Positions 15,022-31,490 are shown, counted from the stretch's first letter. The stretch: 32,000 nt of DNA from Candidatus Electrothrix yaqonensis (GCA_047651235.1 CP178758.1:960001-992000), one strand, 5' to 3'. Program-made: numbers and translations. Notes: generated by a model from the sequence alone, not told the origin.

Positions 15022-16728
15022 TCAAAAATCAAATTTCCAGATGCCGGTGGCGGCATCAGCCAGCCGTTTCTGCCGGGCCGCGATCTTCTGTTCATTCCAG
15101 CTGTCATAATGCTCGGCAACAGCGCGGGTCATCTGAAATGCGCTCTCCTGATAGACTGCCCGCTTGACTGCGTAGTCCTCATTGCCGAGGTCCCGGTTGC
15201 GGCTGGTTTCCAGCGGTGTCATATTGCCGATCCGGTAGATCATCTGCTCCTGTTTGGGTTCCTCCATAAAAGACCATGCTTCGGAAGGATGTTCCGGCAG
15301 AATGTGCTCCAGACTGTACGACGCGCTTTCCAATTCAAAATCATTGCCATACAGCTGACGCTCTATCTCAAAGAGGATATAGCGCACCACCTTTTTATTG
15401 CGGCGGTTTGTGGTGCGGAATTCTTTTTCCGCAAAGGCCGTCCTGAATTGATTGTCGTCAGGATACACCTCCCGCAGTGCAGCAAACAGCTCGACAGGGT
15501 TTGCGTACTCTCTGCCGGAAACCTTGCGGGAAATTGCATTATACAACCTTTCCTGCTCATGCGTCTGCAGATTGCAGATTACATTGTAGCGGAAAGACAC
15601 TACCGTAATGGCCCGTATGATGCGCGTGAACAGCGACCGATCGGATTCATAGTACTGGTCATGGCAGGTCAGCAGCATGGCCAGCGGCTGCCGTACGCTG
15701 AACATCCTGAGCTGCTTAAGGTAATCTCGTTCATCAGAATTCCACAGACTGTCCTGAGCATCCCGGAGGGCTGCGTACACAGCGGCTGACTGATCCAGAT
15801 TCCGTAACAGTTCAAAGGCGGCTTCCCGCGAGGCGATCTGTTTGCGGATGGTCTTGAACAGCTCCGATTTCCGGGTCAGCTTGTTGCGGCTGTTCCAGAA
15901 AACCCGGAGAAATTCCGGAAAGCTCTCGCTGCCCAGCAGACCGACGATCCGCTCCCAGCGGTCCTCCAATGCCTTCAGTTCTGCCTCATGGATGTTCCGG
16001 GTGCTGATAATAGAAAAAAGATAATTTTTCAGCAGGTCAGTTGCTGACAGTCGCACCCCGCGAGCGTTCAGGGTTTCAAAGACTTTGAAGGCGTTCAGCT
16101 CGTCCGTTACGGTGATGACCGTGAACAGGAGTTTGTCTACCAGACTGTCCACAAAGGAGGCCAGCTCTCTGCCGCTCTCCGTTGTGGTTCCGCAGCGGAT
16201 TCTGATGCGTTCTTTGAACCAAATGAACGCCTTGCGCAGCTTGTGCTCGGAGGCATTCAGTCCGCGCTGCGGCAGTTTCTCTAAAGGCACCAGATAGGTC
16301 TGATAAAAGCGGTTGTTATGCCGATTCAGTTCCAATTTGGAGCGCGGCACCAAAATCACCGGATCAAGATAACCAATATAGCTGTTCTGCAGCTGCTCCC
16401 TGCGTCGGTCATTGTTCTGCGCGTCCAGATCAGCCGCAGCCAGGTCTTTCAGATGGCTCAGGCCGGCCAGAATCATTACGCTGAGGGTTGCCAGCCGCTG
16501 CTGGCCGTCAATGATGTCGAACTGCTTGCTGTCCGAGGATTGCAGTACCAGATACCCCATGTAGTGGGCCGGTTCGCCGTCCGGATCAAAGAGGCCGAGC
16601 AGATCCTGCCAGAGGTCATCCCATTCGTCTTCTGTCCACGAATAATCGCGCTGAAAGGGCGGCACCTTGTAGCTGAGTCCGTTGCCCAGCAGCTGCCGGA
16701 AGGTGGAGTTGTTTGTGTTGAAATTCAT
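15022..16728 (-). CDS. DUF262 + DUF1524 protein (GmrSD-like type IV, modification-dependent restriction endonuclease family)
   Basis: 568-aa ORF. The N-terminus has ...YKVPPFQRDYSWTEDEWDDLWQDL... and ...IIDGQQRLATL (DUF262/ParB-like NTPase motifs). The C-terminus has ...YSLEHILPEHP... and ...IGNMTPLETSRNRDLGN (His-Me/HNH-like DUF1524). Confidence 0.8.
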   Translation of the reverse strand: MNFNTNNSTFRQLLGNGLSYKVPPFQRDYSWTEDEWDDLWQDLLGLFDPDGEPAHYMGYLVLQSSDSKQFDIIDGQQRLATLSVMILAGLSHLKDLAAADLDAQNNDRRREQLQNSYIGYLDPVILVPRSKLELNRHNNRFYQTYLVPLEKLPQRGLNASEHKLRKAFIWFKERIRIRCGTTTESGRELASFVDSLVDKLLFTVITVTDELNAFKVFETLNARGVRLSATDLLKNYLFSIISTRNIHEAELKALEDRWERIVGLLGSESFPEFLRVFWNSRNKLTRKSELFKTIRKQIASREAAFELLRNLDQSAAVYAALRDAQDSLWNSDERDYLKQLRMFSVRQPLAMLLTCHDQYYESDRSLFTRIIRAITVVSFRYNVICNLQTHEQERLYNAISRKVSGREYANPVELFAALREVYPDDNQFRTAFAEKEFRTTNRRNKKVVRYILFEIERQLYGNDFELESASYSLEHILPEHPSEAWSFMEEPKQEQMIYRIGNMTPLETSRNRDLGNEDYAVKRAVYQESAFQMTRAVAEHYDSWNEQKIAARQKRLADAATGIWKFDF

Positions 16729-20471: not shown

Positions 20472-20678
20472 ATGGGCAGCCCGGCTCAGCTCTTCTGGGG
20501 AATCATGTTCGGAGCAATCGGCTCTGGATTTTTTATCTACGGAAAGAAGCAGAACGCCTTGATTCCGCTTGGTACAGGGATAGTTTTATGTGTTCTGCCC
20601 TATTTTATCTCCAACATATATCTGATGCTGCTCGTCGGTGTCCTGCTGATGAGTGTTCCGTATTTTTTTAAAGGATAA
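20472..20678 (+). CDS. Small hydrophobic membrane protein (68 aa)
   Basis: Internal ATG of track ORF 20121..20678, preceded by gcaggaga SD. MGSPAQLFWGIMFGAIGSGFFIYGKKQNALIPLGTGIVLCVLPYFISNIYLMLLVGVLLMSVPYFFKG gives two to three TM segments. Confidence 0.55.
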   Translation: MGSPAQLFWGIMFGAIGSGFFIYGKKQNALIPLGTGIVLCVLPYFISNIYLMLLVGVLLMSVPYFFKG

Positions 20679-20736
20679 CCAGTCCTATAATTTTATAGAT
20701 TATAGGGCGCCACAAAAAAAAGGCTCTTCTGATTCC

Positions 20737-22731
20737 ATGCAACGTATCGCTACTATTTCATTAATATTCATATCTTTTGTTTTTGTGTACTCATCTGCGC
20801 AGGGACAAGATGCGGTAGATGTTTCTCTGGCCTATTATGAAAAAGAACTGCTGCCTGAACGGTCAGCGCAGAGACCGAAACATCATGGACATACGATTGA
20901 TGAATCACAAGCAGTCAATATTTTTTATGTTGACTGCAATGATCCGGATGCAGACGATCAGAATCCGGGAACTGCTGATAAACCTTTCAAGGGCATTGCC
21001 TATGCTGTGCATTTTGTTAATGAACAAAAGATACCGGCCAGAATCATCATCAGGTCCGGAACGTATCGGGAGAACGTCGTGCTGGCCGGTGAGTATGCGT
21101 CCAAGAAGAAAGATCCTGTTCTGATCATCGAAGCTGAAAAAAAAGGAACAGTTTTCATCTCAGGTTCCGAGGCCCTGCAGGGTTGGAAAAAAGAGAACAA
21201 AGGAAAGCAGTACAGTGCTGCATGGCCGTACAGATGGGGGTTCAGCAGGTTGGAGCACGAAGAGAAACTCGAATATACCCAGCTCGGACGCAGAAAAGAG
21301 CTGGTCACCCTGAATGATACCCTGTTAACCCAACGGCTGTCCCGCAGCGAACTTGATGCCGGATCGTTCTTTGTTGATGAACAGGGTGGAAAAATTTATC
21401 TGCATCCGCCGGAGCATCCTGATAAAAATATCGATATAAACACAGCTGGTGCTGAAGTCGGCGTCAGGACGAAAATATTCGAGATTAAACGAAGAGCCAA
21501 TTTCATTCTTCGCGGCATCAATATACAGCATACAATGGGCACTATGCATGAGGTTGCTCTGCGGCTGGCTAATGTAGCCAATTTTCTGATTGAAGATTGT
21601 ACCATCTCCGACAACGCGACAACAGGAATGCTTCTCGTTCTGGCAGCAGACGGAACCCTGCGCAGGGTCTCCAGTGTCAATAACGGCGGCAATGGCCTGG
21701 ATATGTATATCGCCCAGTCGATTCTTGTCGAAGACAGCGAGTTTTCCTATAATTGCTGGCGGTCGAATCAGGCCCGTGTATGGCATTATTTTCCGGCAGG
21801 GGCAAAATTATGCTATGCCAGAAATATCGAACTCCGCAGAAATAAATTTATCGGTAATCTGGCCAGAGGCTTCTGGATTGATATTAATGGTGAATTTAAT
21901 CTCTTTACAGAAAATCTGGTGATGGATAATACTGATTTTGGTGTATTCATTGAAACCAGTCACGGGCCGACACGGATAGAAAGAAATACGATAACCGGCA
22001 ATAAGTACGGCATTATGGTCGGAGAAAGCTGGCTCACTGAACTGGTCGGCAATACCATCTTTCAGAACCGCAGGGGCCAAGTGGGCGTAAGGGCGATAAA
22101 AAACCGGACCCAGCAGGATATCAAAAACAGAGAATTCTTTTATGCTCAGGAGACACGGGGAGAACATCTGAGATTCAGGTACCTGCCCATGAAGCTGACC
22201 ATGAACAACAATATCTTGTTTTCAGACCGTAAAGAGGATGTCCTGTACCGGCACGATACAGATTTGGGAACAGGTTTTGCTGAACATATAAAAACGTACA
22301 AGGGAAAGAACAATATATTTTATCACACGAAGAAAGAAAAGGTATTCCTGCCTGAACCTGTCTATACTGATTTGACCTTGGAACAATGGCAGCAGAAAAC
22401 AGAGGAGGATACACAGTCCCAATGGCAGGAACCGAAAATATATTACGTAACCATACAGCAGAAAGGGAAGAATATTGCTGTTGATATCCATAATCCGAAA
22501 TCAAACGTGACAAAAGTGGAACTTTACGGGGCGAAGAAAAGAAATCTCACCCGGAAAGAACTTTACGTTGTTGATTGGAATACTGTACAAAAGAGAGCGG
22601 TCAAGGATTCGCCGCCCTATACCTTTGTCGTTCCTGCTGAACAATCAGAAGGCAACCGGATGTTCTTTGCCAAAGTATATACAGAAGACAATCAGGTGCT
22701 CCATTCAGGGAGAATCTTTGTTGCTCAGTAA
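20737..22731 (+). CDS. Secreted right-handed parallel beta-helix repeat protein (DUF1565/pectate-lyase-fold-like)
   Basis: ATG at 20737 gives a signal-peptide-like MQRIATISLIFISFVFVYSSAQG. ...FYVDCNDPDADDQNPGTADKPFKGIAYAV...IIIRSGTYRENVVL is the typical N-terminal cap of this family. It is followed by repetitive ...I.DN...G..., ...GN..G..., ...N.I.GN.YGI... turns. Visibly AT-richer than the backbone. Confidence 0.7.
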   Translation: MQRIATISLIFISFVFVYSSAQGQDAVDVSLAYYEKELLPERSAQRPKHHGHTIDESQAVNIFYVDCNDPDADDQNPGTADKPFKGIAYAVHFVNEQKIPARIIIRSGTYRENVVLAGEYASKKKDPVLIIEAEKKGTVFISGSEALQGWKKENKGKQYSAAWPYRWGFSRLEHEEKLEYTQLGRRKELVTLNDTLLTQRLSRSELDAGSFFVDEQGGKIYLHPPEHPDKNIDINTAGAEVGVRTKIFEIKRRANFILRGINIQHTMGTMHEVALRLANVANFLIEDCTISDNATTGMLLVLAADGTLRRVSSVNNGGNGLDMYIAQSILVEDSEFSYNCWRSNQARVWHYFPAGAKLCYARNIELRRNKFIGNLARGFWIDINGEFNLFTENLVMDNTDFGVFIETSHGPTRIERNTITGNKYGIMVGESWLTELVGNTIFQNRRGQVGVRAIKNRTQQDIKNREFFYAQETRGEHLRFRYLPMKLTMNNNILFSDRKEDVLYRHDTDLGTGFAEHIKTYKGKNNIFYHTKKEKVFLPEPVYTDLTLEQWQQKTEEDTQSQWQEPKIYYVTIQQKGKNIAVDIHNPKSNVTKVELYGAKKRNLTRKELYVVDWNTVQKRAVKDSPPYTFVVPAEQSEGNRMFFAKVYTEDNQVLHSGRIFVAQ

Positions 22732-22796
22732 CCACAGGAAGACAGGTAATTATTCCTGCAGCCGAAAATAACTCCTGACACCCCGCTGTAACCGTT

Positions 22797-23573
22797 ATGA
22801 TTCCGAACAATATATATCAGGAAATCCTGAACAGGCTTGCTCAGGCGGAAAAAGAACATGATGTCCGCGTCCTGTACGCTGTGGAGTCCGGCAGCCGGGC
22901 GTGGGGCTTTGCCTCCCCTGACAGCGACTACGATGTGCGCTTTATCTATGCGCATCCGAAAGACTGGTATCTTGCTGTTGACCTGGAAAAGCGGTGTGAT
23001 GTTATAGAATATCCGATAGTTGATGAAATTGATCTCAGCGGCTGGGATGTGCGCAAGGCCCTGCGGCTTTTCGGGAAATCAAACCCGGCTATTGTGGAAT
23101 GGCTGCACTCTCCAGTTGTCTACATTGAGCATCAGTCGTTTGCCGACAGGGCAAGACAGCTTCTGCCTGACATCTATTCTGTGGAAAAAGGCATCTACCA
23201 TTACCGCAGTATGGCGAAAACAAACTACAGAGGCTATCTGAAAGAGGAGAAAGTACTTTTGAAGAAATATTTCTACGTCCTGCGTCCGTTGCTCTCTGTT
23301 CTCTGGCTGGAAAAATATCGCTCTCCGGCACCGATAGAATTTGATAAACTGCGACAGCTTGTCCAACATGATATAACCCTGGAGGCGGCGACAGCAAAAT
23401 TGCTTGTCCGGAAAAAAGCCAGCAGAGAAAATAAAAAAAAACCGGCAATTCCGGTACTGAATGCGTTTATTGAGGCAGAGCTGGCCAGACTGGAAGACTT
23501 TAACGCCAAGCCGGAAAAACAACAGGGCGGAATGGACGCTGTCAACGCACTGTTTCGTGCCGTTATCTCCTGA
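22797..23573 (+). CDS. Nucleotidyltransferase-domain protein (Pol-beta superfamily, PF10127/RlaP-like)
   Basis: 258-aa ORF with ...[26 protein letters not shown]... (GS...DxD NTase signature) and ...[13 protein letters not shown]..., ...NPAIVEWL... and ...YFYVLRPLL. Confidence 0.7.
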
Positions 23574-23611: not shown

Positions 23612-23974
23612 ATGCAGCGAACAATGCTTAAATCCAAGATCCACCGGGCAACGATCACCGAGGCGGATCTTAACTATGACGGCAGCCTGACCATTGACCA
23701 GGATTTGCTGGATGCCGCCGGAATCATCCCTTTTGAACAGGTCAAGGTGTATAATATCAATAACGGAGAGCGCTTTGACACCTACGCCATCCGGGGTGAG
23801 CGAGGCTCCGGGGTCATCGGCCTGAACGGGGCGGCCGCCCGCAGAGGGCATGTGGGGGATCTGATCATCATTGTCAGTTATGCTCAATATGATGAGAGCG
23901 AGCTGGATGGTTTTACGCCGAAGATTCTGCTTTGTGATGAACAGAACAGAATTCGGGAACGAATTGAGATATAA
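23612..23974 (+). CDS. panD: Aspartate 1-decarboxylase proenzyme
   Basis: 120-aa [32 protein letters not shown]... (self-processing G-S site), then ...[10 protein letters not shown]... and ...GAAARR...GD..II. Confidence 0.9.
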
Positions 23975-24080
23975 CCCGGCAGCTCTCCGGCTTCTGTCGT
24001 GGCTGTATGTCTAAACACAAAATATGAGGAACAAACTACGTTCGGTGAAGAAGCGTCCTTTTCCTTCTTCAGCCCGACCC

Positions 24081-24136
24081 TTCCGCTTCTCCATAGACCG
24101 GGGCGGCACCTTTACCGATGTCTATGCCGAGGTGCC
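24081..24136 (+). repeat. Left direct repeat: orphan copy of codons 7-25 of the oxoprolinase gene ([19 protein letters not shown])
   Basis: 52/56 nt identical to 26596-26651. All 4 mismatches are synonymous third positions in the shared reading frame. Homology ends 6 nt before the stop of the convergent TPR gene. Confidence 0.9.
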
Positions 24137-24142
24137 AGCCGC

Positions 24143-25825
24143 TTATCCCTGCTCCCGCAGCTTGGCGCGAACTTCCTGCAATGCCTCGCGCCATTCTTCC
24201 AACTTCGGGTGTTCCAGCTGCTTTGCCAAATCCACAGCACGGCTGAGGTATGGTTCGGCCTTGGTCAGCTCGCCTTGTTTTTCGTAAAGCAAGCCTATAT
24301 TCCCACAGGTGACTGCATCACCATCTTTGTCGCCAATCTCCTGTGCTATTACCAGAGCTTGTTCACACTGTTTCAGTGCGGCTGGATAATCTCCTTTTTC
24401 CTCATAAATCGCCGCGATATTGTTCAGCGTTATACCCTCGCCCTGACGGTCGCCGATTTGCCGGGTGATCGCCAAGTCCTGCTCTGAATACTCCAAGGCT
24501 GCATCGAGCTTGCCTTGCGCCCGATATACTTGGCTGATGTTGTTCAGCACCTTGCTTTCCGTGGCCTTATCCTTGATCTCCCTGGCTATAGGCAAAGCTT
24601 TAGTGTAATATTCTAGGGCCGCTGCATAATTGCCCCGCGTATAGTGAATCATGCCAATATTGTTCAGTGACCAACCCTTGCCTGCCTTGTCGTGTATCTC
24701 CCTAAGCAGCGCCAGGCTTTGCTCGATATATTGAAGTGCCTTCGGATCATCGCCCTTGGTGAGATAAGTCATGGCGATATTGTTCAGCGTTATGCCTTCC
24801 ACTCGCTTGTTACCGACTTCTCGGCATATCAGCAGGCTCTGCTCCAGATACTGCAAGGTATTGCCATAGTCACCCTGTATCTTATAAATCTGGCTGATGT
24901 TGTTCAGCAGTATGCCTTCGCCTTTACGGTCACCAATCTCACGACTTATAGACAGGCTTTGCTCGTATAATGACAACGCCTCAGAATAGCGGGTTATCTG
25001 TTTAAGGTTATAGCCAGCCGCGCTAAGGTAGTCCGCTCTTTTTGCTTTGCGCCCCTCAGGTAAGACAGTAGCAGCCTCTTGGTAATACTGCGCAGACTTA
25101 TCGTAGCGATATTGCAGTCGTTGCAGGTCAGCTTGTTCTGCACAACTTGCTGCTTCCGAGAGCTGCCGCTTCTCTAATGCGGCCTGCTGTTCCGCGATAG
25201 ACGCCTTCATCCGGGAAACAGCTTCTCGGTCTCGCTCCCGTGCTTGAGCAAGCAAATTTTCTGCTTCGGCAAATCGACCGTCCTCAATGGCATCCTTTGC
25301 CTGCACCTTGAGGCTGCGCACCTCTGGATCATCAGACTGCACTGCCTCGAAGCGCAACAGCAGCTCCTTGTGCCGGAAAGCTATTTCCCGTAGCTTGCTG
25401 TCCAAGTCACCACGAGCTACTTGCTGCTCTTCGAGTATCTTGAAAAAGCTGGCAAGCGCCGAATCGGTGACTCCAAGCTCACTCACATACTGCGCGAAGA
25501 GCTCTGGCGAAACACCGTAGTTGTTGATCTGCTTGCCAATCGCATGGTCGCCCTGCGCAATGTTTTGCTCGCCGCCATTACAGTTGAATTTGTTGCTTAC
25601 CGAAGACTTCTTTTTTCTCCGAAACACACATGAAGCAATAACAAGCACAGCACTGCCTGTCAGTGAAAGCGCATAAATACCACTGCCGCTCCACGTTACT
25701 TCAGGATGATCAAACAGCCATTGCAGCTTATTGATTGCCAAATCTATAACGGTTCCATCCATCGCATCGTTTTCGCAAGACTGCTGATTCGTTCTCTTTG
25801 AACATAGGCTATAATTTATATTCAT
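24143..25825 (-). CDS. Membrane-anchored tetratricopeptide-repeat protein: N-terminal TM helix, coiled-coil region, then about 7 KLC/TPR_12-type repeats
   Basis: 560-aa ORF with TM helix IYALSLTGSAVLVIASCVFRRKKK. A charged helical region follows (...EAENLLAQARERDREA...). Then come 40-aa repeats of the form A(L)xYxEQSLxIxREIGDKxGEGxxLNNIxxIY. The start is uncertain; an alternative ATG at 25760-25762 gives MDGTVIDL. Confidence 0.8.
   Translation of the reverse strand: MNINYSLCSKRTNQQSCENDAMDGTVIDLAINKLQWLFDHPEVTWSGSGIYALSLTGSAVLVIASCVFRRKKKSSVSNKFNCNGGEQNIAQGDHAIGKQINNYGVSPELFAQYVSELGVTDSALASFFKILEEQQVARGDLDSKLREIAFRHKELLLRFEAVQSDDPEVRSLKVQAKDAIEDGRFAEAENLLAQARERDREAVSRMKASIAEQQAALEKRQLSEAASCAEQADLQRLQYRYDKSAQYYQEAATVLPEGRKAKRADYLSAAGYNLKQITRYSEALSLYEQSLSISREIGDRKGEGILLNNISQIYKIQGDYGNTLQYLEQSLLICREVGNKRVEGITLNNIAMTYLTKGDDPKALQYIEQSLALLREIHDKAGKGWSLNNIGMIHYTRGNYAAALEYYTKALPIAREIKDKATESKVLNNISQVYRAQGKLDAALEYSEQDLAITRQIGDRQGEGITLNNIAAIYEEKGDYPAALKQCEQALVIAQEIGDKDGDAVTCGNIGLLYEKQGELTKAEPYLSRAVDLAKQLEHPKLEEWREALQEVRAKLREQG
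24296..25015. repeat. 120-bp periodic coding repeats (TPR units) inside the TPR gene
   Basis: The motif (g/a)at(a/g)ttgttcag recurs at 24416, 24536, 24656, 24776 and 24896, exactly 120 bp apart. Degenerate units flank these. The repeats also explain the shadow ORFs 23999..24487 and 24692..24970. Confidence 0.85.
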
Positions 25826-25940
25826 TCAATCTACGCCATATCGCATGATTATAGCAGGCATGAAGCAGAATAACGATGTTTTCATTCAGATGTACGTTCG
25901 AGTGTATGTCTTCTGCCTGTCGTTTCAAATGCTGGCTGAA

Positions 25941-25969
25941 TTGACAACTCATCCAGTATGAACTATTCT
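25941..25969 (+). promoter_or_regulatory. Candidate promoter for the antitoxin-toxin pair
   Basis: TTGACA (25941-25946), a 17-nt spacer, then TATTCT (25964-25969), in an AT-rich spacer upstream of the antitoxin. Confidence 0.3.
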
Positions 25970-26052
25970 GACAGGTAACCAGATAGCCCAAAAAAGCAAA
26001 GGAGACGATATGATTTCACTAAAGAAAACTATTGAAATATGAGAGTGTCACT

Positions 26053-26268
26053 ATGAATAACGCAGTTTCATTTAATAAAGTATTGGATGCCGTCGAACAA
26101 CTGCCGATAAATGAGCAGGAGTCGCTTATTGATCTGATCCGCCGCCGTATCGCTGAATACCGCCGTCAGGAGATAGCAACACTGGTATCCTCAGCGCAGG
26201 AGGAATACAACACTGGAAAATTAACTCCTGAAAGTCCGGACGATATTATGCAGTCTATCTTGTCATGA
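26053..26268 (+). CDS. Putative type II antitoxin (small helical addiction-module component)
   Basis: Track ORF 26032..26268 has a TTG start; the first ATG is at 26053 (MNNAVSFNKVLDAVEQLPINEQESLIDLIRRRIAEYRR...). Its stop overlaps the ATG of the downstream RelE/ParE-like reading frame (ATGA at 26265-26268), the classic TA operon arrangement. Confidence 0.6.
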   Translation: MNNAVSFNKVLDAVEQLPINEQESLIDLIRRRIAEYRRQEIATLVSSAQEEYNTGKLTPESPDDIMQSILS

Positions 26269-26548
26269 AGAGACTGCTGCTTAAATCCAGAGCCTTTGTC
26301 CGCAGTGCCAAACGAGAGTTGTACGAAAGAATCCTCAGTTGGCAGAAAATATCCGCGCAACCTTGGAACTGCTTTCCGCTGACGCCTTTCATCCGTCATT
26401 GAAGACCCATAAACTGAAGGGCAATCTTGCTGATTCATGGGCCTGCAGCGTTGCCTATGATTCGAGAATTGTCTTTTCCTTTGTCGAGCATGAAGGAAAG
26501 GAGGCTATTCTCCTGGAAGCAATAGGCACACATGATGAAATCTATTGA
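26265..26548 (+). pseudogene. RelE/ParE-family toxin gene interrupted by a frameshift
   Basis: Frame 1 from ATG 26265 reads MKRLLLKSRAFVRSAKR and then runs into a stop. Frame 3 reads (V)[75 protein letters not shown]. Skipping 2 nt in the gagag tract (26314-26318) joins them into a typical 93-aa toxin. Confidence 0.75.
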
Positions 26549-26577
26549 GATCAGTTTATCTTTCTCCTTCCCTCCTT

Positions 26578-29500
26578 ATGAAAGATACCAGAAAGTTCCG
26601 CTTCTCCATAGACCGAGGCGGCACCTTTACGGACGTCTATGCCGAAGTGCCGGATACACCGGAAAAGCCCGGCTTCCGGGTCATCAAGCTGCTCTCCGAA
26701 GACCCGACCAATTACCCGGACGCTCCCCGCGAAGGCATCCGCCGCATTCTGGCCGAGTTCGGCATCCCGCTGCGCAACGGGCTCGTGGACGGCTCCCGGA
26801 TCGACTGGGTGCGCATGGGCACCACGGTTGCCACCAATGCCCTGCTGGAGCGCAAGGGCGCACGCACCGCGCTGGTCACGACCAGAGGCTTCGGCGATGC
26901 CCTGCAGATCGGCTACCAGGACCGGCCCGACCTTTTTGACCTGCGCATCCGCAAACCTGAGCTGCTCTACGAGACCGTGCTGGAAGTGGACGAGCGGGTT
27001 CGCATCGTCAAGAACGACGAGGAGGCGGCGCGGCTGGCCGCACAGGGCTTTCCCTTGGTCACGGCCCGCAGCGGTGAGCGTTTCGCTGTCCTGGCTGCGC
27101 CCGATCTGACGGTCCTGAAGCCCCGGCTGCGGCAGCTCCTGGACCAGGGTATCAGCAGTCTGGCCATTGTCTTTCTCCATGCCTACGGTTTCCCGCAGCA
27201 CGAGGAGCAGGTCGGCGAACTGGCCCGGCAGCTCGGCTTCACGCAGGTCTCTCTCTCTTCCCAGGTCATGCCTGCAGTCAGGCTGGTCTCGCGCGGCGAC
27301 ACCACCACGGTGGATGCCTATCTCACCCCGCATATCCGCAGCTACCTGGACAGCTTCCGGGCCGGTTTCGCAGGCGGGCTGGAGGAGGGACAGCTCCTCT
27401 TTATGCAGTCGGACGGCGGCCTGGCCCGGGCGGACAGCTTTACCGGAGCGCGGGCCATCCTGTCCGGGCCTGCGGGCGGGGTGATCGGCTATGGCCGAAG
27501 TATGTGGGATACTGCCTCCCGGCAGCCGGTGATCGGCTTTGACATGGGCGGCACCTCCACGGATGTGTCCCGCTTTGCAGGCGAGCCGGAGCTGACCTTT
27601 GCCACCCGGACCGCCGGGGTGCGCATCCATGCGCCGCAGTTAGATATTCGCACCGTAGCGGCAGGCGGCGGCTCCCGTCTCTTCTTCGACAATGCCATGT
27701 TCCGGGTCGGGCCGGAGTCGGCAGGGGCGCATCCGGGGCCGGTGTGCTACCGCAAAGGCGGTTATCTTACCGTGACCGATGCCAATCTGGTGCTCGGCCG
27801 CCTGCAACCTTCGCATTTCCCAGCCATATTCGGGCCAGAGGAGAACCTGCCTTTGGACAGGGAGGCGGCCCGCAATGCCCTTGCCGAGCTGACCGCAGCA
27901 ATCAATGCTCAGTATACCGCCCAGAGATGCGAATCGCTCTCGGTCGAGGAGGCCGCCTTGGGCTTTCTCCGGGTGGCCAACGAGGCTATGGTGCGCCCCA
28001 TCCGCGAGGTTTCGGTGATGCGCGGCTTTGACATCCGCGAGCATGTGCTGGCCGCCTTCGGAGGTGCGGGCGGGCAGCATGCCTGCGCTGTGGCCCGCAT
28101 TCTCGGCGTCTCCAGGGTGGTGATCCACCGCTTTTCCGGCATCCTTTCCGCCTGCGGCTTGGGCATGGCCGATACCGTGATTGACCGTCAGCGGCCTGCT
28201 GCTGCCGAGCTGGGAGCAGACAGCCTGCCTGATTTGCTGGCTGCGCTTGGCCGCCTGCAAGCTGAGACGGAACAAGAGCTGCTGGATCAGGGGGTTCCGG
28301 TGGAGCGGATCAGCAGTCAACGCTTTCTTCACTTGCGCTATGCCGGAACCGATACAGCCCTGATGATTGAAGAGCCGGAAGACGGGGACTTCGCCGCCCG
28401 CTTCAGTGCAACCTGCAGACGGGAATACGGCTTTGTCTTAGAGAACCGTGCAGTCTTGGTGGATGACATCAGGCTGCGTTCCGTGGATCAGGCAGGGAGG
28501 ATGGAGCGGCCTCGCATCGCCCATGCCACAGCCTCGCCTCAGCAGGAAGCCGTGGTGCCGGTGTACTTTGACCAGGGCTGGCATGACACTGCTCTCTATA
28601 ATATGGAAACCCTGCTGGCCGGGCACGAGCTTCCCGGTCCGGCCCTGCTCGTCCAGGATACAGCCACCATCCTGGTGGAGCCGGGATGCACGGCCCGGAT
28701 CAGGGAATACGGGGATGTGGAGATCGAGGTTGGTCAACAGGAGCAGGCCAGGATCGGCACCGAGGTCGATCCCATTCGGCTCTCGGTCTTCTCCAGCCTG
28801 TTCATGTCCATTGCCGAGCAGATGGGCCGGATGCTGCAAAAGACAGCAGTGTCCACCAATATCCGGGAGCGGCTGGACTTTTCCTGCGCTCTGTTCGACC
28901 GGGACGGCGGCTTGGTGGCCAATGCCCCGCATGTGCCTGTCCACCTCGGGGCCATGAGCGAGGCGGTGCGCGGGCAAATCCTGCGCTGCCCTGACCCGCA
29001 GCCCGGTGACGTGCTGCTGAGCAACCACCCGGCAGCCGGGGGCAGTCATCTGCCCGACATCACGGTCATCACGCCGGTCTTCAGCCCGGCCAAGGAGCTG
29101 ATCTTCTGGGTGGCAAGCAGGGGACATCATGCCGACATCGGCGGCATCACGCCCGGTTCCATGCCGCCGGATTCCACCTGCCTTGCCCAGGAAGGCGCAG
29201 CTATCGAGTCCTTCCGGCTGGTTCGGGATGGAGTGTTTCAGGAGAAGGGCATCACTGCGCTGCTTCTGACTGCCGCGCCGGGTAGCAGCGGCACCCGCCG
29301 CCTGGCCGATAACCTCTCCGACCTGCAGGCCCAGGTGGCGGCCAACCAGAAGGGCATGGATCTGATCTTGGAAATGGCGGATCAGTACGGTCTGGCTGCG
29401 GTGCAGGCCTACATGGGCCATGTCCGTGATGCGGCGGAAGCGGCTGTGCGTACCTGCCTGCGGGAGATCTCCCTGCGCCGCAACATGGCGGAGCAGGACA

Positions 29501-30324
29501 CGGTCGAGGCGGTCGATTACTTGGACGATGGCAGTCCCATCCGCCTGCGTCTGAGCATTGATCGACGGGAGGGCAGCGCAGTCTTTGACTTCAGCGGCAC
29601 TGGTAGCCAGTTGCCCGGCAATCTGAACGCACCCAAGGCCGTGACCCAGTCGGCCCTGCTCTACAGCCTGCGCTGCCTGGTGGAACGGGACATCCCGCTC
29701 AACAGCGGCTGTCTGCAGCCGGTTGAGCTGCGCATCCCACAAGGTTCCCTGCTCGACCCTGCACCGGAGGCCGCCGTGGTCGGGGGGAATGTGCTGACCT
29801 CACAGCGGGTGGTTGATGTGATCCTGCGGGCCTTCGGCGCTGCAGCAGCCTCCCAGGGCTGCATGAACAACCTCTCTTTCGGCAATGCCTCGTTCGGCTA
29901 TTACGAGACCATCGGCGGCGGGGCAGGAGCCGGGCCGGACTGGCACGGGCAGTCCGGTGTCCACACCCATATGACCAATACCCGCATCACCGACCCGGAG
30001 ATCCTGGAACGCCGCTATCCGGTGCTGCTCAGACAATTTGCCCTGCGTCGAGGTTCAGGCGGCAGGGGCCAATTCCACGGTGGCAACGGGTTAGTGCGGG
30101 AACTGGAATTCCTGGAATCGCTCCAAGTGTCCATCCTCTCTGAGCGACGGGTTTATGCGCCGTATGGCATGAAGGGCGGGGAAGATGGAGCAAAGGGAGA
30201 AAATGTGCTGATCCGTAAGGATGGAAGCCGGGTTGATTTGGGCGGGAAGGGGTGGGTGCAGGTCGAGGTTGGGGAGAGGTTGAAAATATGCACACCGGGA
30301 GGTGGTGGCTGGGGATTAAAATGA
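26578..30324 (+). CDS. 5-oxoprolinase (ATP-hydrolysing), fused hydantoinase A / hydantoinase B type
   Basis: ATG at 26578 ([25 protein letters not shown]...) inside track ORF 26545..30324. The N-terminal half has HyuA motifs (...[12 protein letters not shown]...). The C-terminal half has HyuB motifs (...[24 protein letters not shown]..., ...[10 protein letters not shown]... and ...TPGGGGWG). Confidence 0.9.
26596..26651 (+). repeat. Right direct repeat (within the intact oxoprolinase CDS)
   Basis: Partner of 24081-24136. The repeat period is 2515 bp. Confidence 0.9.
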
Positions 30325-31490
30325 GATTGCTGGATACCAGCATGAAAGCATATGCGCTGTTTGTCATCAGCATTCTTTGCCTGTTCTGCACCCGCAACAG
30401 TCATGCTGACGGCAAGATGTATCTGCGTCAAGATCGTATCCCGGCAAATATTCCTTACCAGCGAGCTCTGATCTTGTTTGATCACGGCAGAGAGACACTC
30501 GTTGTGCAGAGCAAGTATTCTGCTCATGGCCTGAAAGAGAATGCTGTCGGCTGGGTGATTCCTGTGCCGAATGTTCCTGATGTGACATCAGTCGCCGCAG
30601 ATGCCGCTGCAACAGCATTCTGGAAACTTGAAGACATATCGTATCCAGCAGTCACGCATTTTCTTCCGCAAAAATTTTGTCTTAGGATTTTAGGCATAGT
30701 TTTTCTGTTTTCACTTGCCTATATGTTCTTGATGCCGGTCATTGTCCTTACCCGATGCGTCAAAGACAAATCATGCAGGCCGCTGAAACAGGCAGTTGCT
30801 CAGCGAACATGGCCTGCAAGCTATGCCATGAATTTTCTTGTCTTCCTGCTGACTCTCATCATCCTTCCAAATTTTATACGCTACCGAGGGGGCAATGATG
30901 TTGATATAGTGCAGGAGAAAGAAGCAGGGATTTACAACATACGCGTCATTCGCTCTGATCAAGGAAAATCCTTGGTCGAATGGCTGAACAGCAATGGCTT
31001 CAGATTCAACGCAGCTGATCAGGAAGCGTTCGATTTTTTCATTCACAAGAACTGGTGCTTTGTTACAGCGCAGATTAACGCCCAGAATCTTGCGGCCACG
31101 GATGAGCTTATCTCAGAAGGACTTGCCGCGCCCCTGATACTTGGCTTCAACACAGAGCAGCCTGTCTATCCTCTGAAGCTGACCGGCACCGCAGGCAGTC
31201 CGACAGAAATCTTGCTGTATATCTATGCAAAAAAGAAAATGCAGTGCGGCGACAAGCTGGAACTTAATTTTGCAGGTGAAAGCAGCTTTGACTTCTTTGC
31301 GTCAATCCTTTCTGAGATGATTGATACTATCACAGATAAACAGCTTGAACAGTTTATGCCGATTTCAGGAAAAGGCTACCTGACAAAATGCAAAGGCACC
31401 TTGCAGCCGGACCAGATGAAGAGCGACATTTGGTTTCTCGAAGCTGAGAACAGCACGGCTTATCGAAAAAAAATCAAAAAAGTATTGTAA
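30321..31490 (+). CDS. Exported/membrane protein, DUF2330-like
   Basis: ATG at 30321 overlaps the oxoprolinase stop (ATGA). An alternative ATG at 30342 gives the signal peptide [22 protein letters not shown]. ...[21 protein letters not shown]...[11 protein letters not shown]... and ...[48 protein letters not shown]... match my recollection of the DUF2330 pattern. Two central TM helices are present. Confidence 0.5.

Follow-up and report, generated by a model that had tools for sequence, protein, structure and literature searches.

Homology-facilitated illegitimate recombination is an established route by which pieces of displaced genes are left behind (PMC3240628; PMC5361080). The orphan modules of the V. 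cholerae T6SS effector-immunity arrays and of rhs/cdi loci are displaced pieces of this origin (PMC5361080), and that paper cites de Vries & Wackernagel 2002 and Prudhomme et al. 2002. The integrated elements e14, Rac and SXT encode their own integrase, span 15-100 kb, are matched by empty sites in sister strains and can excise (PMC6379469, PMC2791158).

The window analysed here is a stretch of 32,000 nt from Candidatus Electrothrix yaqonensis (GCA_047651235.1, CP178758.1:960001-992000; hereafter YB6), in which two copies of an oxoprolinase gene start flank a TPR gene and a toxin-antitoxin (TA) pair. The left copy is best read, with a probability of about 0.6, as what is left of a second oxoprolinase gene behind panD, a stump that a single illegitimate junction connects to an ancestrally linked TPR-oxoprolinase block.

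Two copies of an oxoprolinase gene start

The intact gene (26578-30324, plus strand) encodes a fused HyuA/HyuB 5-oxoprolinase-type protein of 1248 aa with the Pfam domains Hydant_A_N, Hydantoinase_A and Hydantoinase_B, which is 100% identical to P0001 of Ca. Electrothrix sp. YB6. Its stop codon overlaps the ATG of a DUF2330 gene (30321-31490, plus strand) in an ATGA motif. The CT-rich leader directly before the oxoprolinase ATG (26551-26577, plus strand) resembles the leaders of loci L007 and L008 in a leader alignment, and leader and gene start are therefore probably native rather than TA-derived or cassette-borne.

A repeat search returned a direct repeat of 56 nt (24081-24136 and 26596-26651), the copies of which are 52/56 (93%) identical and lie 2515 nt apart. 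A 48-nt sub-pattern, with up to 3 mismatches allowed, occurs at no site besides these two, with 0 expected in 100 shuffles. The right, resident copy (block 26596-26652) corresponds to codons 7-25 of the oxoprolinase ORF counted from the ATG at 26578, while the left, orphan copy begins 106 nt past the panD stop (23974) and ends 6 nt short of the TPR stop codon (24143-24145). Both encode the same 19 residues. They differ at block positions 21, 36, 39 and 51, and at position 57 just beyond the 56 nt; each of these five differences in 57 nt falls on a third codon position and is synonymous. The 52/56 repeat with exclusively synonymous mismatches, as described in the sequence-only reading, was recomputed and holds, position 57 included.

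The published YB6 genome is a Nanopore assembly that was polished once with Illumina data (PMC12093952), which could favour an assembly artefact as the source of the repeat. Two Logan short-read contigs from separate runs are, however, 100% identical to the window: L011 (17.3 kb, SRR31704081) across both repeats and the toxin frameshift described below, and L012 (2.6 kb, SRR31704082) across the orphan and its boundary with the TPR gene. An artefact is therefore very unlikely, to the point of being negligible, as the arrangement is exactly reproduced by two independent short-read assemblies.

The orphan stump (24066-24137, plus strand) consists of 5 variable N-terminal codons followed by the 19-codon block. 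The variable codons read SSARP, similar to MSSASQ of P0002, and are wholly different from KDTRK at the same place in the resident copy. Where an ATG would be expected, the orphan has none, and its leader may thus have changed already, which counts against reading it as a gene stump. The spacer after panD (23975-24065, plus strand), presumably the leader of the truncated oxoprolinase copy, has no detectable homolog, as judged by the lack of a blastn match in any fetched locus, and no terminator was predicted in it.

Block identity of the orphan amounts to 55/57 with L007, 54/56 with L005 and 52/56 with the resident copy. When polarised with six orthologs, the derived states are all confined to the resident copy; the orphan carries the majority state at all four in-block mismatches and 0 private changes in 57 nt. 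T45 and G54 are common only to the orphan, the resident copy and L007, assigning the orphan to the same lineage. The probability that 5/5 differences are synonymous is ~1e-3 if substitutions are random and ~0.013 if the block was duplicated in situ, and the polarised pattern has P ~4e-4 to 2e-3 in a model of in-situ duplication in which the orphan evolves neutrally. A local duplication of the gene start within YB6, followed by neutral drift of the orphan, would provide a same-orientation direct repeat 2.5 kb apart. It is nevertheless highly improbable, considering that all five differences are synonymous, that the derived states are confined to the selected copy, that the orphan lacks private changes in 57 nt (P ~4e-4 to 1e-2) and that the DNA directly upstream of the two blocks is unrelated. 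Relic and surviving gene are distinct alleles, each evolved under selection. Sequence comparison thus supports the orphan as the 5' end of another oxoprolinase allele that was selected until recently, in line with the earlier proposal that it is not a neutrally decaying local duplicate.

The TPR gene and the toxin-antitoxin pair

The TPR gene (24143-25762, minus strand) encodes a membrane-anchored coiled-coil/TPR protein (Pfam TPR_12, 7e-52) of 539 aa counted from M22. A start at 25825 was rejected in favour of M22 (25762), based on ortholog alignment and on the 539-aa gene call in L011. Elsewhere, relatives of the TPR family occur amid apparently ordinary chromosomal ORFs, such as a topoisomerase-like gene in L016, as judged from ORF translations.

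In L006, L009 and L010, the TPR gene lies immediately upstream of oxoprolinase in divergent orientation (69-72% nt and 64% aa identity, with colinearity up to the final codon), and the DNA beyond the YB6 relic is therefore found elsewhere as a contiguous TPR-spacer-oxoprolinase block. L008 has kept a 43-aa C-terminal TPR remnant upstream of oxoprolinase; the gene or its remnant is present beside oxoprolinase in 5/7 Electrothrix loci, YB6 counted. A conserved spacer segment (25842-25901), 80-140 nt upstream of the TPR start, shares 88% identity over 60 nt with L006 2541-2600 and probably marks the ancestral TPR-oxoprolinase intergenic region. The spacers of L009 and L010 hold a 236-aa ORF and that of L008 an RCC1-repeat gene. 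Downstream of TPR, no second block copy was detected in L006, L008, L009 or L010, where the best local scores equal the shuffled median, and the gene just past the TPR stop in L006 looks like a normal chromosomal ORF and bears no trace of a mobile element. Judged by this synteny, the TPR gene appears to be the ancestral divergent neighbour of oxoprolinase.

The spacer of YB6 contains an intact antitoxin gene (26053-26268, plus strand), which overlaps the ATG of the toxin gene at 26265. The 71-aa antitoxin has no match in Pfam or NCBIfam, and is homologous to a gene of the same length that precedes a RelE/StbE toxin gene on a plasmid of Picosynechococcus. The RelE/YafQ-family toxin gene (26265-26548, plus strand) is a pseudogene with a 1-nt deletion near 26316-26318. 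As encoded, its largest piece stays under the cut-off of 30, at 26.7 bits, while the frameshift-repaired toxin reaches 31.8 bits over the full length of YafQ_toxin and can be aligned over residues 5-94 with plasmid toxins annotated as RelE/StbE. L011, assembled independently of the published genome, has the frameshift too, and the toxin is probably inactive. Since TA genes are absent from the spacers of L006, L008, L009 and L010, the pair appears to be a separate insertion into the TPR-oxoprolinase spacer, covering roughly 25902-26550. Oxoprolinase starts 29 nt past the toxin stop codon and is thus probably read through from the TA promoter.

The sequence-only reading had regarded 24137-26595 as one inserted cassette that might travel as a unit with TPR and TA as joint cargo. 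This is not supported: TPR is conserved beside oxoprolinase elsewhere without TA and without a second repeat, TPR and TA occur apart in relatives, and the TA pair, with its frameshifted toxin, probably arrived separately. Searches of plasmid and phage collections returned nothing similar to the segment, and a search of viral contigs brought up no relative of the TPR protein. The reported absence of an integrase or recombinase between the repeats was confirmed, as Pfam searches of the ORFs in 24143-26548 returned only TPR, no match and YafQ. Recombinase families were likewise missing from ten long ORFs profile-searched in 1-14 kb of the window and from the precomputed Pfam matches of the L011 gene calls covering 14.7-32 kb. 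A cassette inserted into oxoprolinase is therefore disfavoured, failing on TPR synteny, the separate TA, the lack of a recombinase and the lack of plasmid or phage matches.

Probable origin of the stump

On the left side, panD (aspartate 1-decarboxylase, 23612-23974, plus strand; Pfam Asp_decarbox, 2.2e-52) is the last gene syntenic with Electrothrix GW3-4, the one relative informative about an empty site. Homology to GW3-4 ends at the panD stop codon, and the 84% nt identity to L013/L014 stops at the 3' end of the gene. On the right side, homology to L009/L010 begins at 24143, the TPR orthologs being colinear to the last residue and the TAA stop. The putative illegitimate junction between stump and TPR-oxoprolinase block lies somewhere in 24137-24142 (interval 24138-24142). 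The order panD-oxoprolinase was found in no relative examined, panD of GW3-4 being followed by a DegT aminotransferase gene; L005 and L007 carry oxoprolinase without TPR, but in unrelated contexts. No donor and no empty panD-oxoprolinase arrangement was found because YB6 is early-branching and has no close sequenced relatives.

The oxoprolinase neighbourhood differs in each of the seven Electrothrix loci, and in all seven the gene is 10-17 GC points above its flanks; closed genomes such as GW3-4 are absent from the best 120 oxoprolinase matches listed. This pattern fits a horizontally exchanged gene. The closest oxoprolinase among the matches listed has 83% aa identity, and a single YB6 protein is present among them, indicating that the second copy is gone. 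Sliding-window identity and informative sites revealed no mosaic breakpoint in the resident gene, although their power is low with relatives that are 17-25% diverged. Sites shared with L007 and sites shared with the TPR-linked lineages are interleaved from codon 3 on.

The following sequence of events would explain the locus best. A second oxoprolinase copy, functional until recently, would have stood behind panD, and only its first ~25 codons would be left. This stump would be joined to the TPR-spacer-oxoprolinase block at one non-homologous junction, located 0-6 nt beyond the TPR stop codon, so that nothing would have been inserted between the repeats and the right repeat would be the normal start of the surviving gene. 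The likeliest path is that TPR-(TA)-oxoprolinase DNA from a related Electrothrix of the YB6/L007 lineage recombined with the resident panD-linked oxoprolinase. Homology inside or beyond oxoprolinase would have served as anchor, while the other end would have been closed by an illegitimate join (homology-facilitated illegitimate recombination), displacing the resident gene save for its first ~25 codons. In a two-step variant, the second copy would have been acquired before the body of the redundant gene was deleted.

This variant can be phrased as a simple deletion, in which two same-orientation copies, panD-oxo2 followed by TPR-TA-oxo1, lost the DNA from oxo2 codon 26 to just past the TPR stop, and in which no recombination with incoming DNA is needed at the truncation step. 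It produces the same final structure with a single non-homologous junction at 24137-24142, agrees with the YB6/L007-specific states T45 and G54 on both copies, and would leave one full copy today, as expected once a redundant gene is lost. It appears possible but doubtful, because an earlier event is needed to bring two copies side by side, none of the Electrothrix loci examined has two oxoprolinase genes, and five synonymous differences in 19 codons imply a long coexistence of functional paralogs.

Reading the left copy as a stump carries its own difficulties. If the illegitimate join was random, two coincidences are needed: the stump ends <=2 codons from the end of the most codon-conserved block of oxoprolinase, and the junction lies <=6 nt from the TPR stop. 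An insert between direct repeats is, in addition, what a circular molecule classically leaves when it integrates by a single crossover or site-specifically, which also counts against the stump. An integrase-less or decayed element, or a circularised DNA fragment, may have brought TPR, TA and an oxoprolinase start of its own and integrated within the 57-bp block, either site-specifically in trans or by RecA-mediated Campbell-type recombination, with the native start displaced as in e14/icd, Rac/ttcA and SXT/prfC. The segment is indeed exactly bracketed by target-derived direct repeats with an intact oxoprolinase ORF, the two copies are different selected alleles, the 20-nt perfectly identical run at the left of the block could be the crossover site, and the block is the most codon-conserved stretch of oxoprolinase across Electrothrix. 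SXT/prfC (PMC2791158), Rac/ttcA and e14/icd (PMC6379469) set a precedent for 5'-end integration in which the N-terminus is replaced. Such an integration is still unlikely, as neither an integrase, a transposase nor another recombinase was found in the 32-kb window, and as TPR (in L008 its remnant) adjoins oxoprolinase in four other loci, none of which has the block twice. The ordinary-looking ORF beyond the L006 TPR stop, the separate occurrence of TPR and TA, the native-looking, L007-like leader before the resident ATG, the missing matches in plasmids, phages and, for TPR, viral contigs, and the apparently chromosomal surroundings of TPR-family relatives point in the same direction. With neither an own or adjacent recombinase nor travel as a unit with both att copies detected, an e14-type element is disfavoured. 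Quite improbable is a minimal integrase-less TPR(-TA) module that uses the first 57 coding bases of cable-bacterial oxoprolinase, which are unusually conserved at the nucleotide level, as attachment site and is mobilised by a recombinase elsewhere. If it existed, the module would bring a replacement promoter and N-terminus, and the TPR-oxoprolinase adjacency of several Electrothrix species would reflect repeated or ancient integrations instead of plain synteny.

Read as a leftover gene copy, the repeat is an ordinary recombination scar, and the YB6 stump reveals no new mechanism. It corrects a tempting mis-annotation, since a 'mobile defence cassette with att sites' would turn into conserved synteny plus a gene stump, and provides one dated example, at the level of sequence, of a gene copy being replaced in cable bacteria. 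As there are few genomes of these bacteria, with little synteny and no genetic tractability, such scars are among the only records of their DNA exchange. The analysis also flags oxoprolinase as a GC-atypical, context-hopping accessory gene in these bacteria.

Relation to orphan modules, integrated elements and TA pairs

The stump, as interpreted here, resembles the V. cholerae T6SS and the rhs/cdi orphans in that an incoming copy with a shared conserved segment would have replaced the resident one, leaving the old fragment beside the new module, with one homologous side, one non-homologous junction and no dedicated recombinase. It differs from them in being the 5' stump of a metabolic gene rather than a 3' toxin tip or an immunity gene. 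Unlike in the arrays, the YB6 relic is single, and the event is deduced with neither a donor nor a mosaic breakpoint identified.

With e14/icd, Rac/ttcA and SXT/R391/prfC the locus shares a piece of the target gene duplicated at both ends (PMC6379469, PMC2791158), a copy beside the gene body that keeps the ORF, and conservative differences between the copies. In contrast to these elements, the YB6 segment lacks a recombinase and a known empty site, and its 'cargo' gene TPR is conserved beside the target on the chromosomes of other species, where no second repeat occurs.

The TA pair corresponds to type II RelE/YafQ systems in its 71-aa antitoxin, which overlaps the toxin start by 4 nt (ATGA), and in its toxin, which matches the YafQ_toxin and RelE_StbE profiles and shares 48-53% identity with plasmid-borne RelE/StbE toxins. 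It deviates from them in the 1-nt deletion that probably inactivates the toxin and in an antitoxin that belongs to no curated family.

The oxoprolinase repeat and its two alleles

The chromosome of the cable bacterium YB6 contains a 56-nt direct repeat at 24081-24136 and 26596-26651 (identity 52/56), which was recovered by a repeat search of the window. Matches to its 48-nt sub-pattern are confined to these two sites, with none in 100 shuffles. The right copy lies in an intact gene for a 1248-aa fused hydantoinase A/B protein of the 5-oxoprolinase type (26578-30324, plus strand), of which it comprises codons 7-25. The left copy, the orphan, starts 106 nt past the panD stop codon; the TPR gene (24143-25762, minus strand) runs towards it, and 6 nt separate the end of the orphan from the TPR stop codon. 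Translation of both copies yields an identical 19-residue peptide, and the four mismatches as well as the next base (position 57) are all synonymous third-position changes, confirming what the sequence-only reading had reported. The closed YB6 genome derives from Nanopore reads with Illumina polishing (PMC12093952); the raw Nanopore data amount to 149 Gb. Two Logan contigs from separate runs and independent assemblies, L011 (17.3 kb, including both repeats) and L012 (2.6 kb, including the orphan-TPR junction), are 100% identical to the window and reproduce the arrangement, which makes an assembly artefact very unlikely.

The 19 residues of the block are nearly invariant among the retrieved oxoprolinase homologs, while the preceding 4-8 residues and the following residues are variable. 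On its left side the repeat thus begins where protein conservation begins, as expected of any pair of oxoprolinase alleles. On its right side it finishes together with the conserved block, and the orphan itself stops there. The five codons upstream of the orphan block are still recognisably homologous to an oxoprolinase start (SSARP vs MSSASQ in the homolog P0002), and the orphan is a true gene start, more than a motif. Among orthologs, the block is also the most codon-conserved stretch of the gene, with a codon identity of 0.83 vs 0.58 for all invariant-amino-acid columns; no other run of 19 such columns reaches this value, the best (0.81) overlapping the block. This codon conservation is lost in the resident YB6 copy, where non-majority codons occupy 39% of the block, equal to the gene-wide rate, and is kept by the orphan, with non-majority codons at 2 of 18 block positions. 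RNA structure or a riboswitch as its cause was rejected, because an Rfam search of the block gave no match (best E 0.16) and folding z-scores of -1.5 to +1.9 showed no sign of conserved structure.

Polarisation of the differences against six Electrothrix orthologs places the majority state on the orphan at each of the four mismatches inside the 56-nt repeat, and the orphan carries no private change in 57 nt. The derived states sit on the resident copy, two of them unique to it. T45 and G54 are common to both copies and, beyond them, only to L007, the closest ortholog. Random substitutions in the block would be synonymous about 25-28% of the time, and the probability that five of five differences are synonymous is about 1e-3 under random substitution and about 0.013 under an in-situ duplication in which the orphan evolves neutrally and the resident copy is selected; taking polarisation into account gives about 4e-4 to 2e-3. 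The orthologs L007 (55/57) and L005 (54/56) match the orphan better than does the resident gene 2.5 kb away. The all-synonymous differences and the confinement of derived states to the resident copy make a decaying local duplicate very unlikely. The earlier proposal of a different, selected allele is supported and sharpened by these data, according to which the stump would be what is left of another gene copy, belonging to the same lineage and under selection until recently.

A search with the orphan peptide for the parent allele returned eukaryotic exon-1 fragments and three short ORFs on small contigs, two of which belong to Electrothrix MAGs; the source allele was not found among them. One matching Logan contig (L042, 1114-4810) contains oxoprolinase domains in separated, exon-like pieces and is probably a eukaryotic OXP1 gene, which would explain the short 'RRILEV...' proteins P0241, P0242 and P0245.

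TPR-oxoprolinase adjacency in relatives

In the contexts of the nearest oxoprolinase homologs, a TPR gene lies directly upstream of and divergent from oxoprolinase in the Electrothrix loci L006, L010 and L009, being split into two ORFs in the last (L009 1826-3276). A fourth locus, L008, retains a 43-aa C-terminal TPR remnant (2143-2271). The TPR genes of the relatives share 69-72% nucleotide and 64% amino acid identity with YB6 TPR and are colinear with it to the last residue and stop codon. L006 and YB6 also have 60 nt of spacer (88% identity) and an N-terminal coding region (88% over 146 nt) in common. The spacer of L009 and L010 is occupied by an unrelated 236-aa ORF without known family, that of L008 by an RCC1-repeat gene beside the remnant; spacer and TPR gene are eroding in relatives. 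The toxin-antitoxin (TA) pair is absent from L006, L008, L009 and L010, and none of them has a second block copy downstream of TPR, local alignment scores equalling the shuffled median. The adjacency is therefore older than the orphan-forming event; the TPR genes differ at 28-31% of nucleotides, and a stump this old would have decayed. This synteny without TA pair or second block copy does not support the view of 24137-26595 as one cassette with att-like repeats.

A search of 72,556 plasmids and 50,697 phage records gave no match to the 2.46-kb segment, and IMG/VR yielded no relative of the TPR protein. The absence of a recombinase between the repeats was borne out, and integrase, transposase or other recombinase families were not found in the 32-kb window either. 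Searching metagenomes with a TPR alignment gave 27 TPR-family loci without oxoprolinase, TA genes or block copy, many of these contigs being too short to judge adjacency. As judged from ORF translations alone, these loci seem to have ordinary chromosomal surroundings; L016, for instance, contains a topoisomerase-like gene. No exact-protein match of panD and the 560-aa TPR ORF was obtained, because recorded start codons differ.

The toxin-antitoxin insertion and the oxoprolinase leader

The TA pair represents an insertion in its own right, spanning roughly 25902-26550. The 71-aa antitoxin (26053-26268, plus strand) is intact, and a homolog of it is paired with a RelE/StbE toxin on a plasmid. 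The toxin gene (26265-26548, plus strand) is split into two frames by a 1-nt deletion near 26316-26318; after frameshift repair, its product exceeds the YafQ_toxin threshold and aligns end-to-end with annotated RelE/StbE toxins. The frameshift is also present in L011, assembled independently of the published genome, and the module is therefore probably toxin-dead. Only 29 nt separate the stop codon of the toxin gene from the start of oxoprolinase, whose expression may rely on the TA promoter. The CT-rich leader right before this gene's ATG resembles those of L007 and L008, indicating that the surviving gene start is native and not element-supplied. The suggested defence role of TPR and TA is not supported, their sole PADLOC match being a generic TPR model. 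About 7 kb upstream of the repeat region, 15022-16728 (minus strand) encodes a GmrSD-type (DUF262/DUF1524) protein matching PADLOC HEC-06/Orf5 models at E ~1e-238, likely a type IV restriction or defence gene.

Rearrangement at panD and origin of the orphan

The closed Electrothrix genome GW3-4 shares panC, a cupin gene and panD in synteny with YB6, and homology ends at the panD stop codon, followed in GW3-4 by a DegT aminotransferase gene. Relative to GW3-4, where panC, cupin gene and panD are contiguous, YB6 has an insert at 20653-23573, behind the cupin/68-aa ORFs and ahead of panD; it encodes a beta-helix/NosD-like protein as well as an RlaP nucleotidyltransferase. The insert upstream and the loss of synteny downstream make both panD flanks rearrangement points in YB6. 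An empty site, with panD followed by a single oxoprolinase start, was not found among the relatives examined; an oxoprolinase scan of genome contigs returned only distant relatives (<=52%), which carry no empty-site information.

The oxoprolinase neighbourhood differs in each of seven Electrothrix loci. In all seven the GC content of the gene exceeds that of the flanks by 10-17 points (55-65% vs 43-50%; GC3 0.76 in YB6), and high GC as a sign that it is foreign specifically in YB6 was rejected on these grounds. Closed genomes such as GW3-4 are absent among the best 120 oxoprolinase matches. The gene looks like an accessory gene exchanged horizontally between genomes. Its stop codon overlaps the start of a DUF2330 gene (ATGA, 30321-30324), which suggests that the two genes may be translationally coupled; in none of the relatives does DUF2330 follow oxoprolinase.

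Most simply, the structure consists of the stump plus an ancestral TPR-oxoprolinase block, joined at one illegitimate junction in 24137-24142. The favoured route is homology-facilitated illegitimate recombination (PMC3240628, PMC5361080), in which a related cable bacterium would have supplied TPR-(TA)-oxoprolinase DNA, anchored by homology in oxoprolinase and closed illegitimately at its other end. No mosaic breakpoint is visible in the resident gene. Loci with TPR linkage also have a 3-codon 'long form' behind the block, which would suggest an imported 5' end, but flanking L007-type sites at codons 21, 24, 34 and 35 argue against this. A less favoured variant is a deletion that removed most of a redundant second oxoprolinase copy; neither the single copy now left in YB6 nor the lack of a visible breakpoint tells the two routes apart.

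The main rival, rated as unlikely, is a circular TPR-TA molecule integrated through the block by a single crossover or by site-specific recombination in trans, analogous to e14/icd, Rac/ttcA and SXT/prfC. Such an integration accounts for the direct-repeat geometry and for two coincidences of position, a stump ending right after the block and a junction within 6 nt of the TPR stop, but is at odds with the conserved TPR-oxoprolinase synteny lacking second repeats, the native-looking oxoprolinase leader and the absence of any recombinase. Records of such scars are scarce in cable bacteria, and the orphan-TPR-oxoprolinase arrangement is best read as one, belonging to a generally known type of recombination scar.
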